Shown in pieces: positions 48,858-56,876 of a stretch of 64,000 nucleotides of DNA (positions are counted from its first letter, which is position 1; every line of letters begins with the position of its first letter). This DNA is from Thermodesulfobacteriota bacterium (lineage in GTDB: Bacteria > Desulfobacterota > GWC2-55-46 > JADFVP01). The translations under genes were made by a program, and so were the position numbers. Location: positions 6,236-70,235 of the forward strand of contig JBHHUP010000003.1 in NCBI GenBank assembly GCA_046753845.1, in the 5' to 3' direction. Under the pieces are notes generated by a model. That model was not told the DNA's origin. It searched no databases and worked only from the letters and a program-made list of their open reading frames with translations.

Positions 48858-50438
48858 TTACGGGTATCTCTCACTCATCTTAAGTAGATCGTACTTTACA
48901 AACATGCCCGATGTCTCGTAGAGGACTTTTAGGAATATGGGCCTCTTTCTGCGCCATACATCGCTAATGTATCTGGGTGCGGCAGCGGGGTTTGACTTTA
49001 TGAGGTGATGGGTGCGGTCGGCCTCAACAATGGTCTCAATGTACTTCGAGGTAAAATCCCCTGTCGTAATATTCGGTTTTACCACCTCGAGCTTATCGTA
49101 GCTGAAGCCATCGGAAAACAGGCCCTCGGTCTCGCACCTCTTGAATAACTCCGTGCCCGGCAGAGGAGTAGCGATGTAGATTTCCCTGCTGTCAAATAAA
49201 CCGCTGTAGTTGGCCATGTACAGTGACCTTCTGATGTCCTTTTTTGTCTCTCCTGGCAGGCCTATGACAAAGGTTCCCGTAAGGTGCACGCCTTTTTTTC
49301 TCGCATACCGCAGCACCTCCATGGCCTTTGTTAACTTAAGAGGTTTTTTAACTACCCTTGTAAGCACCTCCTGAACACCTGACTCTATGGCAAAACCCAT
49401 TGAGGTACATCCTATCTCCATTAGTTTATCGATAAGCTCCTCATCCATGCACCAGAGCGCGAGGACCATGAAGTGAATCTCAAGTTTAAAACCCTGCCTC
49501 TTGAACTGGTCGCAGAACTCCTTTGCACGGGCCTTGTCATGGGTGAAGTTATCGTCTATTATCATGAGTTTTTTTATCTTGTATCTGTCTACCAGAAAAC
49601 GTATCTCAGCGAAAACCTCGTCGAGCTTACGGGCCCGAAACCTCCGCCCCATGGTGCGGTGCACGGAGCAGAAGACGCATGTCCCGGCGCACCCTCTGGT
49701 GGTAAGCACCGTGGGCATGGCCTGAGGCTCGCCCCAGGTAACCTTATTGGGTTTATAGTTACTGGAATATTTTTCGTATGGAAATAAATGCCATGCAGGG
49801 TAGGGCAGCGCGTCAAGGTCGGCTATAAAGGGACCCTGTGCGTTATTTACCACCGCCTCACCGTCTCTCCAGACAAGGCCCGGAACAGTACCGTATGAAG
49901 GGACATCGTTCTCTTTATTATCCTTATTATCGCTACTCTCTTTACCGCAGTCGCACTTTGCGCAGCCCTTGCAGTTATCACCGATGGCCCGTAGAAGAGC
50001 TGGAAAAGAAAGCTCTGCCTCACCCTTTAAGACAAAGTCTATTGCCCTGTTCTCCATAACCTCCTCTGCCATGGAGGTTGGATGATTGCCGCCCACTACT
50101 ACGACTGCCTCGGGCAGCATCTCCTTTACAAGGCAAGCCGTCTCGTTCATTGAGCCCACCATTACAGAAAAATTACAGCTAATACCCACAAGGTCGGGTG
50201 AGAATTTTTTAATCCTCTCCCTTACCTCATCCATGGGTATACCAACATCCACATATCCCTCTGTAAGAGGCGCATCTCTATCAAGGCCCTCGGTCTGGCA
50301 ATCAAGTATGGCTACGGTATAACCTTCGGCCTCAAGCACGGAGGCAAGGTACATAATCCCCATCGGCGGGTAGACGATGCGTTGGCCCGAGGTGGCTATC
50401 TTCATATTAGGCTGTAAAAGAAGTATCCTCTTTATCAT
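48858..50438 (-). CDS. B12-binding radical SAM enzyme
   Basis: 526 aa. N-terminal cobalamin-binding-like Rossmann region 'VVVVGGNHPTS'. CX3CX2C cluster 'TTRGCAGTCVFCSV'. Confidence 0.75.
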   Translation of the reverse strand: MIKRILLLQPNMKIATSGQRIVYPPMGIMYLASVLEAEGYTVAILDCQTEGLDRDAPLTEGYVDVGIPMDEVRERIKKFSPDLVGISCNFSVMVGSMNETACLVKEMLPEAVVVVGGNHPTSMAEEVMENRAIDFVLKGEAELSFPALLRAIGDNCKGCAKCDCGKESSDNKDNKENDVPSYGTVPGLVWRDGEAVVNNAQGPFIADLDALPYPAWHLFPYEKYSSNYKPNKVTWGEPQAMPTVLTTRGCAGTCVFCSVHRTMGRRFRARKLDEVFAEIRFLVDRYKIKKLMIIDDNFTHDKARAKEFCDQFKRQGFKLEIHFMVLALWCMDEELIDKLMEIGCTSMGFAIESGVQEVLTRVVKKPLKLTKAMEVLRYARKKGVHLTGTFVIGLPGETKKDIRRSLYMANYSGLFDSREIYIATPLPGTELFKRCETEGLFSDGFSYDKLEVVKPNITTGDFTSKYIETIVEADRTHHLIKSNPAAAPRYISDVWRRKRPIFLKVLYETSGMFVKYDLLKMSERYP

Positions 50439-51688
50439 CAGAGAGCCATCCTTAATGGTTTTTCCGTTATAATCTCCACAGCTGATATGGCACGGGCCGC
50501 CCTTGCCGCCGCCTCTTCCCTTGAGTCCCCCGTGGCTATTACCATGCCGGCGCGCCCGGGGTGCGAGACCACGGGAGAGAGGGTATCGCCCTCGTGCACA
50601 TAAAACCTCATTATCTTAATCCCAGGTATGTTCTCAAAGTCAGCGGCGCGGCGTATCTCTTTTACCACCCCCGACTCAGGAAACCAGAACCTCTGCGAGA
50701 CAAATCTCGTGAAATCAGCCCTGTAATCATCTGCCTTTAGACTTACTCCAAGGGCCAGCAATAAGGCCGCCTCTACAAGATTCACCCCCGTTGATAAGGG
50801 GATGGTATGGGTGCAGAAGTACCCGCCGCTAAGCCTTGTAGCCGCCTCTATAAGCACAGGGCCGCTGCCCGTCATTACGATATCGCCCTTAATCGTCCAG
50901 TTATCCATACCAAAGGCGCGGGCCACCTTTAGTATTACCTTGTCTATGGCAACAAGCTCACCGGGCCAGTGACGGGCCGGCAGGTCTCCGCCGTTCTCAA
51001 TGACATAAGGGGCGAACCTGGCGAGATGCTCATAGTTTCTGTCCGATAACCCCGGTGTAGCCACCACACCATCTGCGATAAGGGACTCCGTGCTTACCTG
51101 CTCACCCTCTACCCATTCCTCGGCCATGACACGGCCCGAGGGCGAGTTCTTAAGGGCCTCAGAATAGGCCCACGATGGCTCAACGCCCTCACTCAGCCGC
51201 ACTACGCCCCGTGCCCCCCGGCTGTCAACGGGTTTTACTACAAGGGGCCTCTCCCTCTCCCCCATAAAAACCTTAAGCTCCTCAGCCCCCTTTACAAGGG
51301 CAAACCACGGCACAGGCACGCCCATCTCTTTAAAGGCCTTCTTCATAAGAAACTTATCACTTGCTATGCGCGCTGATTCCACGGAAGGCCCGGGCAGCCC
51401 CAATTCCTCTGCTACTAAGGCTACTGTCATTGGCACATCAGCGGCCGCAGAAATAACACCATCAATGGGTGTACCTTTATTAGATGCCCGCGCAAGCCTC
51501 AGGGTCTCTTCCGCATCATATGTGCTCGCCACGATGGCCTCATGGGCAATGGCAAGACCGGGGGCAGCAGGGTCTCCATCAGATACCACGACTCGAAGGC
51601 CCATCTCACGGGCGCACTCTATAATGGGCAGGGCCTCTACGCCGCCTGAGATTATAAGAATATTTTTTCCCCTTACATTCACGGGCAT
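50438..51688 (-). CDS. ATP-grasp family ligase
   Basis: 416 aa. PreATP-grasp then ATP-grasp ('LVVKPVDSRGARGV', 'AEEWVEGEQVSTESL'). Overlaps neighbouring genes, so operonic. Confidence 0.7.
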   Translation of the reverse strand: MPVNVRGKNILIISGGVEALPIIECAREMGLRVVVSDGDPAAPGLAIAHEAIVASTYDAEETLRLARASNKGTPIDGVISAAADVPMTVALVAEELGLPGPSVESARIASDKFLMKKAFKEMGVPVPWFALVKGAEELKVFMGERERPLVVKPVDSRGARGVVRLSEGVEPSWAYSEALKNSPSGRVMAEEWVEGEQVSTESLIADGVVATPGLSDRNYEHLARFAPYVIENGGDLPARHWPGELVAIDKVILKVARAFGMDNWTIKGDIVMTGSGPVLIEAATRLSGGYFCTHTIPLSTGVNLVEAALLLALGVSLKADDYRADFTRFVSQRFWFPESGVVKEIRRAADFENIPGIKIMRFYVHEGDTLSPVVSHPGRAGMVIATGDSREEAAARAARAISAVEIITEKPLRMAL

Positions 51689-55941: not shown

Positions 55942-56876
55942 CTCTCCCCCTTTACTCCGTATATGATGGTTTCTCTACCGATATTATGCCTTGCCATAAG
56001 GGCGTACATCTCCTTTTTAAAGGTCTTTAACTCCGGTGTTGAGAGCATGGTATCGAGATTTTTTCTCATCTTGTGACAGCTCCTGCCGAGCTTATCGTCA
56101 CCAACGTAGTTTCTACCCATAAGGAGGAAAAAATCCATTGGGAAGGTAGCCGATACCTCTGCGATGGTAAAACCGGCTTTACGAATAAGGGCCTTCATGG
56201 AATCGAATGAAAAATAATTTATGTGATGAGGCACTGATAACCAGTATGGGTTAAAGCCCAGTGAGTCACGGAGAACCTTCTGCACGGGGCTGTAATCATT
56301 GGGTGCCACAGCGCAGATGATACCGCCCTCGCCAAGAAGCCCATGGGCCTCTTTTAGAAGGTGAAGGGGGTCCGCGACGTGTTCAAGGACCTCGCTGATA
56401 TGCACGGCATCAAAGGCATGGCCTTCTTTTTTAAGGGTATTACCCTCAAAAAAATCGTTCTTTACATTAAGGCCGAGCCCCGCGGCATACTCTGCGGCAA
56501 GTTTCGATGGCTCCACTCCAAGACACTGCCATCCTCTGCCTGCGGCGCGCTTCAGGAAAAACCCCGGCCCGCACCCTATGTCCAGTACCCTGCGCCGGTG
56601 CTTACCGAGCCTTGACTCCATAAAACCGAGTCTCTCGTCATAGTTTATGTCCCACCACTCCAGGTCCTCAAGTACAGACTCTATGAACTCGGGTTTTTCT
56701 TTGCTGAAGTACTCATCCACGTATATCCTCTCCATATCCCTGTCCCCGGGTATGGGGTCGATATGGACAAAGCCGCAGCAGAGGCAGTCAACAACCTTAT
56801 AACCTTCCTTCTCTTCTATGATAAGACCCCAGTGCTCATCTACAGGCGCACTATCTTTACAGGCCATGACTCTCAC
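55923..56876 (-). CDS. class I SAM-dependent methyltransferase with an N-terminal Cys-rich (Zn-ribbon-like) segment
   Basis: 'VVDCLCCGFVH' followed by motif I 'VLDIGCGPGFF' and 'DAVHISEVLEHV'. Confidence 0.6.
   Translation of the reverse strand: MRVMACKDSAPVDEHWGLIIEEKEGYKVVDCLCCGFVHIDPIPGDRDMERIYVDEYFSKEKPEFIESVLEDLEWWDINYDERLGFMESRLGKHRRRVLDIGCGPGFFLKRAAGRGWQCLGVEPSKLAAEYAAGLGLNVKNDFFEGNTLKKEGHAFDAVHISEVLEHVADPLHLLKEAHGLLGEGGIICAVAPNDYSPVQKVLRDSLGFNPYWLSVPHHINYFSFDSMKALIRKAGFTIAEVSATFPMDFFLLMGRNYVGDDKLGRSCHKMRKNLDTMLSTPELKTFKKEMYALMARHNIGRETIIYGVKGERWPEQL

Follow-up and report, generated by a model that had tools for sequence, protein, structure and literature searches.

In a window of 64,000 nucleotides from a Thermodesulfobacteriota bacterium (contig JBHHUP010000003.1), seven genes lie on the minus strand at 48858-56876, within an island of flagellar and sugar-biosynthesis genes. 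We give about even chances to the proposal that these genes are the lineage-specific, side-chain-building part of an operon for the glycosylation of flagellin with a sugar of the pseudaminic acid (Pse) type, in which an ATP-grasp enzyme would attach a methylated polyhydroxy acid through an amide bond. The enzymes predicted in the block point to an acid derived from a sugar phosphate. A first-pass annotation of this DNA had already envisaged a methylated hydroxy acid, amide-linked to an amine of the nonulosonic acid, and in outline this was right; the class of aldolase, the boundary of the block and the uniqueness claimed for it were not.

Organization and conservation of the block

The limits of the seven open reading frames (ORFs) are exactly those annotated earlier, and the Pfam domains found in all of them agree with the gene content described at that time, namely, a B12-binding radical S-adenosylmethionine (SAM) enzyme, an ATP-grasp ligase, two Zn-dependent dehydrogenases, a protein of the transaldolase and aldolase family, and two SAM methyltransferases. 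Six of seven junctions overlap or abut, the sole gap being one of 200 nt, from 53377 to 53578, and the genes therefore form a single operon. This gap (53378-53577) separates the genes for the 365-aa dehydrogenase and the transaldolase, and Logan contigs have a called ORF of 48 aa within it; the ORF is absent from more distant loci, where the corresponding gap measures 30-66 nt. Between 40 and 64 kb of the window there was no match to Rfam, and neither promoter-like sites, which occur at chance level (14 found, 14.7 expected), nor terminator-like sites, which are enriched (34, with 17 expected) and all weak and inside genes, were informative.

When a single genome from each GTDB species was scanned, orthologues of the radical SAM enzyme, with identities of 61-87%, were found in 16 species, all of them uncultured Thermodesulfobacteriota or 'Deltaproteobacteria' known as metagenome-assembled genomes (MAGs); the protein from the window is identical to one recorded from a Thermodesulfobacteriota MAG. 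When all island proteins were compared with these loci using tblastn, the full order from a class-III aminotransferase to flagellin and FliD was recovered wherever the contig reaches, with the glycosyltransferase gene maf in every one of the 15 informative loci, and with protein identities for the block genes of 45-91%. The same gene order is seen in a JGI metagenome contig (L041). The radical SAM enzyme forms about 24 orthologue clusters at identities of at least 58%, below which there is a sharp fall to 38%, and the matches of the genome scan at 24-30% identity share no neighbours with the block. The arrangement of these genes is far beyond chance. As had been proposed, the block sits inside a Pse-type flagellin glycosylation island, and its co-occurrence with pse and maf genes across genomes is strongly positive inside this clade.

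Predicted enzymes and the widespread ligase core

The 230-aa protein encoded at 52685..53377 had been read as a fructose-6-phosphate aldolase (FSA) that frees three-carbon units from fructose-6-P. It belongs to Pfam family TAL_FSA (2.5e-48), and its nearest solved relative is the transaldolase of Thermotoga maritima (1vpx, 220 bits), compared with 120 bits for E. coli FSA (1l6w); overall, the transaldolases of T. maritima, T. thermophilus, T. acidophilum and B. subtilis score 172-220 bits, whereas E. coli FSA entries score 110-122 bits. With the NCBIfam model TIGR00875 it reaches 245.7 bits, the cutoff being 245.95. In an alignment with the T. maritima enzyme and FsaA, whose reference sequence is identical to that of PDB 1l6w, the residues Asp6, Glu58, Lys84 and Phe130 are present in every block protein, that is, in the window and in its 16 orthologues. 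Two of these positions set the protein apart from FSA: Glu58 (SLEVV) stands in place of Gln59 (FAQVM), and Phe130 (SPFIG) in place of Tyr131 (APYVN). The cluster transaldolases of L041, L063 and L117 have the same Asp/Glu/Lys set together with Phe, and that of L094 keeps the set but has Trp at position 130; the Tyr of FSA occurs in none. At this switch position, a single Phe-to-Tyr replacement raised the aldolase activity of TalB 70-fold and made it a dihydroxyacetone-dependent aldolase (PMC3962226).

By its catalytic residues and nearest relatives, the supposed FSA is thus classified as a short transaldolase of the TalC/MipB type. Glu58 and Phe130, together with this kinship, lead us to expect that a ketose phosphate donates a three-carbon unit to an acceptor aldehyde with no release of free triose, which is not the chemistry that had been assigned to it. 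A housekeeping transaldolase was also considered and, for this clade, it is ruled out because the gene holds a constant position inside the operon in 16 species. In one locus of the clade, L015, further genes are inserted and the transaldolase is less closely related (40% identity).

The second enzyme that carries our proposal is the 416-aa ATP-grasp protein (50438..51688), for which the earlier assignment as a carboxylate-amine ligase of the L-amino-acid ligase (LAL) type was borne out by Pfam, profile search and fold. Specifically, it matches ATP-grasp_3 (PF02655), ATPgrasp_N (PF18130) and LAL_C2 (PF18603) above cutoff (7e-18), and retrieves the LAL BL00235 at 6.6e-28; its AF2 model (pLDDT 93) has BL00235 (3vot) as its best Foldseek match, with a TM-score of 0.82-0.87 and an rmsd of 3.1, followed by RizA, BacD and PurT. 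Its genomic context suggests that the nucleophile is a sugar amine rather than an amino acid. The family is not clade-specific, as it has more than 2000 homologues, many of them near 50% identity, including proteins from Terriglobales MAGs.

A metagenome scan with an alignment of this ligase yielded 80 loci, with homologues 45-59% identical. In the loci with at least 3.5 kb of downstream sequence, a gene for a protein resembling glycoside hydrolase family 57 (GH57) adjoins the ligase gene in 37 of 50 and lies within 6 kb in eight more. Upstream, 28 loci with at least 9 kb were informative: they encode NeuB (19), a cytidylyltransferase (22), a class-III aminotransferase (20) and a PseG-like protein (19), and also a split transketolase (15), a short-chain dehydrogenase/reductase (SDR; 21), an aldo-keto reductase (AKR; 13) and a transaldolase (3). 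When the carbon-carbon transferase was counted across 42 ligase loci, it was a transketolase in 22 and a transaldolase in 3. NeuB directly adjoins the ligase in about 12 of the metagenome loci, and maf and flagellin were found in 1 and 2 of 20, respectively. The common arrangement is that of L045, namely, PseC-NeuB-cytidylyltransferase-class-III aminotransferase-AKR-PseG-like-SDR-(split transketolase)-ATP-grasp-GH57-methyltransferase. A Pfam census of the 127 ORFs from ten such loci gave NeuB in 10, ATP-grasp in 10, GH57 in 9 and transketolase in 7, with no acetyltransferase family among the 25 commonest. A few genes after the ATP-grasp-GH57-methyltransferase run, L045 also encodes a 438-aa protein with DUF4910, DUF2172 and HTH_47 domains (16994-18310), which resembles the Campylobacter protein Cj1295 in size and in its 'aminopeptidase-like' nature.

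These results show that a core of ATP-grasp ligase, GH57-like protein, class-III aminotransferase and methyltransferase is widespread in metagenomic nonulosonic-acid clusters. The acid-building cassette, for its part, appears to be exchangeable: it usually comprises a split transketolase with SDR and AKR enzymes, and here a transaldolase, two dehydrogenases and a radical SAM enzyme. The enzyme set had been presented as a different one from those known, which is half true; the transaldolase, the two dehydrogenases, the 421-aa methyltransferase and the B12-binding radical SAM enzyme are clade-specific, but the ligase core is not. Our literature search returned nothing specific on ATP-grasp enzymes with GH57 proteins, or with transketolases, in nonulosonic-acid clusters.

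The GH57-like gene (46733..48823, minus strand) had been left out of the block, and as the near-invariant partner of the ligase it shifts the boundary on that side. Its 696-aa product has three domains and matches Glyco_hydro_57 in Pfam (7e-15), and the full length of its AF2 model (pLDDT 88.5) can be matched to GH57 4-alpha-glucanotransferase and to GH38 mannosidases. E123, D223 and E225 are invariant, the first two in 41 homologues, and align with Glu123, Asp214 and Glu216 of the 4-alpha-glucanotransferase of T. litoralis, of which Glu123 and Asp214 are the catalytic nucleophile and acid/base of GH57. Identity to the solved GH57 enzymes is 12%, and the context argues for a substrate other than an alpha-glucan. 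A CE4-type de-N-acetylase was ruled out for this protein, given the GH57/GH38 fold over all three domains and the conserved Glu and Asp positions. A glycosidase-type enzyme has no obvious role within a cytoplasmic nonulosonic-acid pathway.

The 526-aa radical SAM enzyme (48858..50438) contains a B12-binding domain (PF02310, residues 23-149, 1.3e-23) and a Radical_SAM domain (1.3e-20), and the CxxxCxxC cysteines C250, C254 and C257 are invariant in the alignment of 16 orthologues. It shares its N-terminal B12 domain and CxxxCxxC core with Sden_1168/PhpK, Fom3, GenK and TokK, and among NCBIfam models it comes closest to that of the Sden_1168 P-methyltransferase family, at full length and with 235 bits, below the 575-bit cutoff; the window has no phosphonate context, and no characterised methylase equivalog was reached at NCBIfam cutoffs. 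The earlier description of a class-B-like enzyme agrees with these features, which make the protein a candidate C-methyltransferase, with C-methylation as the most likely reaction. No orthologue was found outside the one clade in the GTDB scan. The nearest paralogue examined (P0026, 38% identity) is found in a glycan or sugar-modification cluster, and the context of a second distant paralogue was uninformative. Elsewhere, in the planctomycete-like loci L039/L040 (8645-13271), the ATP-grasp gene and a (split) GH57-like gene come right after a radical SAM gene that lacks a B12 domain, beside flgK, flgL, fliW and csrA, and in L089 a distant B12-binding radical SAM gene follows the ATP-grasp-GH57-methyltransferase run. 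Radical SAM enzymes therefore recur with the ATP-grasp/GH57 module.

Both dehydrogenases have ADH_N and ADH_zinc_N domains. The 350-aa enzyme (51679..52731) is of the polyol, ketose-reductase or Tdh type, its nearest solved structures being ketose reductase, sorbitol dehydrogenase, threonine 3-dehydrogenase and galactitol-1-P 5-dehydrogenase, and it is below every NCBIfam equivalog cutoff; this type speaks for intermediates that resemble sugars, not trioses. The 365-aa enzyme (53578..54675) is a classical, primary-alcohol-type dehydrogenase of class I/III, with 150-187 bits against the class III and I enzymes in PDB, 237 bits with the NCBIfam NDMA-dependent alcohol dehydrogenase and about 200 bits with formaldehyde-dehydrogenase-type families, all below cutoff.

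Regarding the methyltransferases, the 421-aa protein (54676..55941) matches Methyltransf_23, 11, 25 and 12 over residues 198-316 only, its N-terminal part of about 190 aa having no match, and homologues were found only in Thermodesulfobacteriota loci and in the contig L006. The 317-aa protein (55923..56876; Methyltransf_23, 2.5e-24) has homologues of 35-47% identity in 18 metagenome loci, often directly after the GH57-like gene. Some members of the clade encode a third such enzyme of 274-290 aa beside the radical SAM enzyme (L003, 11533-12405; L006, 9184-10008), and species probably differ in how far the product is methylated.

Proposed pathway and competing explanations

In the pathway that we propose, PseB and PseC would produce UDP-4-amino-4,6-dideoxy-L-AltNAc, and its unblocked 4-amine, which becomes N7 of Pse, would be acylated by the LAL-type ATP-grasp enzyme, with the carboxylic acid activated as an acyl phosphate. 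This acid would originate from a sugar phosphate: the transaldolase may extend an aldehyde by a dihydroxyacetone unit of three carbons; the two dehydrogenases, polyol-type and classical, together with the adjoining GFO/IDH/MocA oxidoreductase, may set its oxidation state; the two SAM methyltransferases may O-methylate its hydroxyls; and the radical SAM enzyme may add a C-methyl group at an unactivated carbon. Divergent PseG-, PseI- and PseF-like enzymes would then take the bulkier intermediate to the CMP-sugar, which Maf would transfer to flagellin.

The acylation step is suggested by the point at which the island departs from the canonical Pse pathway. Pfam scans that covered the majority of the window's longer ORFs detected neither PseH nor any GNAT or hexapeptide acetyltransferase, and none was seen in the upstream flanking sequence L008; as no PseH is encoded in the island, the 4-amine would stay unacetylated and open to the ATP-grasp enzyme. 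According to NCBIfam, PseB (encoded in L008; 499 bits, cutoff 408) and PseC (454.8, cutoff 423.5) are canonical, whereas the PseG-like protein (98 bits, cutoff 153.55) and the NeuB-family synthase (359 with NeuB, cutoff 400; 302 with PseI, cutoff 340) fall short, and the cytidylyltransferase is likewise divergent. Divergence therefore begins after the missing PseH step, which would fit addition by the ATP-grasp enzyme of a different, larger acyl group, to which the enzymes of the following steps would have to be adapted.

Several points weigh against this proposal. First, it rests on the gene content of uncultured MAGs, and pseH could sit elsewhere in the genome. Second, LAL-type ligases normally activate amino acids, which leaves room for an amino acid as the acyl donor or for a ligation of reversed polarity; medium-chain alcohol dehydrogenases normally do not oxidise aldehydes to acids; and BchE, HpnJ and AprD4, which are non-methylating enzymes, follow closely as the next-best matches of the radical SAM protein. 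Third, the GH57-like partner, invariant and by its residues catalytically intact, is left with no role in the scheme. Fourth, the trio of cytidylyltransferase, class-III aminotransferase and PseG-like protein, common to most of the ATP-grasp loci, also occurs in the O-antigen locus of Legionella pneumophila Sg6/Sg12, for which no ATP-grasp enzyme is listed (PMC3694923), so that the aminotransferase is not restricted to clusters with the ligase. Fifth, one ENA contig of 5x coverage (L006) has the order GFO-methyltransferase-dehydrogenase-transaldolase-dehydrogenase-ATP-grasp-methyltransferase-radical SAM followed by a PKD-domain gene, with no maf or flagellin within 5 kb and no GH57 gene downstream. 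It had been foreseen that a block without flagellin genes would speak against a role in flagellin glycosylation: this low-coverage contig is such a case, but none of the 15 species loci is. Where other loci have the class-III aminotransferase, L006 (1-16862) has fragmented genes for a Glu/Leu/Phe/Val-type dehydrogenase.

An unlikely but credible alternative is that the radical SAM enzyme, possibly with the transaldolase, the dehydrogenases and the aminotransferase, acts on the nonulosonic acid itself or on its hexose precursor, and that the ATP-grasp enzyme adds an ordinary acid. C-methylation at C9 would give a ten-carbon ulosonic acid, and oxidation followed by transamination a third amino group. 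The class-B radical SAM methylases GenK and Fom3 extend the carbon chains of sugars, an oxidoreductase with a class-III aminotransferase follows the classic keto-then-amine logic, and the sugar-modification context of the paralogue P0026 and the divergence of the NeuB-, PseG- and PseF-like enzymes, all three, would be in keeping with a remodelled skeleton. CMP-linked alpha-keto acids with a C10 backbone, to which no genes are assigned, have been described in Magnetospirillum (preprint 10.64898/2026.04.20.719630). However, two methyltransferases, two dehydrogenases and a transaldolase exceed what methylation of a backbone needs, and the widespread variant has transketolase, SDR and AKR in their place and no radical SAM enzyme; therefore, the ligase core does not depend on the radical SAM enzyme, no orthologue of which was found outside one clade.

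The model of the first-pass annotation, which we regard as less likely again, would have an FSA free a triose from fructose-6-P that is oxidised to glycerate, di-O-methylated by the two methyltransferases and ligated, giving 2,3-di-O-methylglyceroyl-Pse, perhaps C-methylated. The two methyltransferases match two O-methyl groups, a C3 carrier enzyme is present, and both di-O-methylglyceroyl-Pse and N-glyceroyl-Pse are natural products whose genes are unknown (PMC3068675, PMC5378307); moreover, the alternation between transketolase (C2) and transaldolase (C3) could mirror glycolyl and glyceroyl groups. Nevertheless, the residues Glu58 and Phe130, where FSA has Gln59 and Tyr131, and a similarity to transaldolases nearly twice that to FSA, are difficult to reconcile with release of a triose, as Phe at this site means about 70-fold lower aldolase activity in TalB (PMC3962226). 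In addition, one dehydrogenase is of the polyol type, no aldehyde dehydrogenase is present, and the window encodes no Cj1295-type protein.

It is improbable, in our judgement, that the polarity is reversed, so that the product of the transaldolase would be transaminated to an amino-polyol and the ATP-grasp enzyme would amidate a sugar carboxylate, either C1 of the nonulosonic acid or that of a uronic acid, in parallel to the serinol and ethanolamine glucuronamides of the Campylobacter HS:2 capsule. A ketose-forming enzyme with an aminotransferase recalls the synthesis of serinol phosphate by Cj1437/Cj1438, and homologues of the ligase occur in polysaccharide loci that lack nonulosonic-acid genes within 10 kb (L037). 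Nonetheless, CMP activation and transfer by Maf require a free C1 carboxylate, NeuB adjoins the ligase in the dozen or so loci mentioned above, we know of no C1-amidated Pse, and without PseH a free amine is plainly available. Finally, that the block tailors some other surface glycan, or that the transaldolase and dehydrogenases are bystanders from central metabolism, is very improbable: L006 has the block beside a PKD-domain protein and without maf, and most metagenome ATP-grasp/GH57 loci carry glycosyltransferases, Wzx and Wzy and lack maf and flagellin, but in this clade the block is invariably part of the flagellar cluster, with maf and flagellin directly downstream, its genes overlap within the operon, and the transaldolase and dehydrogenase orthologues hold their position at 45-91% identity in 16 species.

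The surrounding island and known systems

The genes around the block complete the island; those from PseC to the PseG-like protein, and those for Maf and flagellin, are on the minus strand. Ahead of it the order of transcription is PseB-PseC-NeuB-family synthase-cytidylyltransferase-class-III aminotransferase-GFO/IDH/MocA-PseG-like, and behind it GH57-like (696 aa)-Maf-211-aa protein-flagellin-FliD. PseB adjoins PseC at or just beyond the end of the window, as seen in L008, a contig of the same organism, and flgI-flgJ-flgM-flgN-flgK-flgL-csrA-fliW lie upstream of PseB. The canonical PseC aminotransferase (62094..63464) is above the NCBIfam cutoff over residues 62-443 and probably starts about 60 codons 3' of the listed TTG. 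It is followed by the divergent NeuB-family nonulosonate synthase (61054..62097; Pfam NeuB and SAF), the divergent PseF-like CMP-sugar cytidylyltransferase (60209..61075; CTP_transf_3, with only weak NCBIfam matches of the KdsB type), the class-III, HemL-like aminotransferase (58894..60288; Aminotran_3, and PRK06209 at 431 bits, cutoff 486), the GFO/IDH/MocA oxidoreductase (57870..58979), which is conserved in the clade and kept even in the minimal block of L006, and the divergent PseG-like protein (56876..57907), a candidate UDP-sugar hydrolase with no Pfam match.

Downstream of the GH57-like gene are the genes for Maf (44785..46701; MptE-like and Maf_flag10_N in Pfam, PseD domain in NCBIfam), the nonulosonic-acid glycosyltransferase, and for flagellin (43153..43995; 280 aa, Flagellin_N and Flagellin_C), its presumed acceptor. 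Between both, and kept in all related loci, is the gene for the 211-aa protein (44153-44788), which has no Pfam match here and whose orthologues have weak matches to DUF8042 and to TP0873_N of Treponema pallidum; it could be a Maf adaptor. Its identity with GlfM is not supported, as GlfM of Shewanella is a far smaller four-helix protein of 89 residues. The remaining 40 kb of the window are a flagellar and chemotaxis supercluster, with the island between fliW and flagellin. It includes two separate motA/motB pairs (29-1500 and 38466-40136), a PilZ-domain protein (40338-40919) just downstream of the flagellin and fliD region, and a 640-aa HEAT-repeat protein (6347-8269) between cheR and fliA.

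An amide-linked hydroxy-acid substituent, as put forward from the start, fits the known chemistry of the Pse derivatives of Campylobacter, Treponema and Shewanella. Sialic-acid-like sugars on flagella, S-layers and lipopolysaccharides carry a growing list of unusual N-acyl groups, including an undefined 236-Da moiety in Shewanella, and these groups influence motility, recognition by phages and detection by the immune system. Very little is known about the enzymes behind their synthesis and attachment, for which the LAL-type ATP-grasp protein with its GH57-like partner provides a concrete candidate; the pair could also serve as a genomic marker from which modified nonulosonic acids are predicted in bacteria that have not been cultured. 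It is tempting to go further and regard this pair as a widespread, uncharacterised system of N-acyl diversification in which an exchangeable carbon-carbon transferase of the pentose-phosphate type, transketolase or transaldolase, is the source of the acyl unit, and in which the radical SAM enzyme of this clade remodels the sugar skeleton into an ulosonic acid of C10 or more, like those described in Magnetospirillum, but we hold this to be distinctly doubtful.

The closest studied analogue is the sfmABCDE operon of Shewanella oneidensis MR-1, which encodes a NeuB-like protein, a thiamine diphosphate (ThDP) enzyme, an SDR, a methyltransferase and an ATP-grasp enzyme; there, flagellin carries a mono-acetyl Pse (274 Da) plus C9H16O7 with 0-2 methyls, and the ATP-grasp mutant shows a smaller loss of flagellin mass than the other sfm mutants (PMC3765264). 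The likeness is one of gene content: both systems lie beside maf and combine a NeuB-like protein, a carbon-carbon bond-forming enzyme, a reductase, a SAM methyltransferase of about 400 aa and an ATP-grasp protein of about 410 aa, and both have PseB and PseC and lack clear orthologues of PseH, PseG, PseI and PseF. In contrast with the window, sfm has the ThDP enzyme and the SDR in place of the transaldolase and the two Zn-dependent dehydrogenases, and neither a B12-binding radical SAM enzyme nor a GH57-like gene is reported for it. The metagenomic clusters (L045, L042 and L077, from Terriglobales and other MAGs) share with the window the ATP-grasp protein (45-59%) followed by the GH57-like protein, a related methyltransferase, and the order PseC-NeuB-cytidylyltransferase-class-III aminotransferase-PseG-like. 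They differ from it in having transketolase, SDR and AKR instead of the transaldolase, two dehydrogenases and GFO oxidoreductase, and in usually lacking the B12-binding radical SAM enzyme, the 421-aa methyltransferase, maf and flagellin, many of them being in polysaccharide loci.

Other systems resemble ours in the product that we predict. The flagellin of Campylobacter jejuni NCTC 11168 carries a Cj1295-dependent 2,3-di-O-methylglyceroyl-Pse (PMC3068675), that is, a flagellin Pse with an amide-linked O-methylated hydroxy acid, although its substituent is on N5 and requires an aminopeptidase-like protein for which removal of the acetyl group at N5 has been proposed (PMC3068675), whereas the window has neither a Cj1295-type protein nor PseH. 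In Treponema denticola, FlaB carries 2-methoxy-4,5,6-trihydroxyhexanoyl-Pse (PMC13439194, citing Kurniyati 2017), a Pse-type sugar on a short flagellin with an O-methylated polyhydroxy acyl group that resembles a sugar acid, as in the product that we predict. Tannerella has N-glyceroyl-Pse, and the making and attaching of such N-acyl groups has been called 'a major challenge' in that literature (PMC5378307). Systems that tailor the Pse of flagellin were thus already known, and what is new here is a recurrent, unstudied ATP-grasp/GH57 module that appears to be combined with exchangeable transketolase or transaldolase cassettes.

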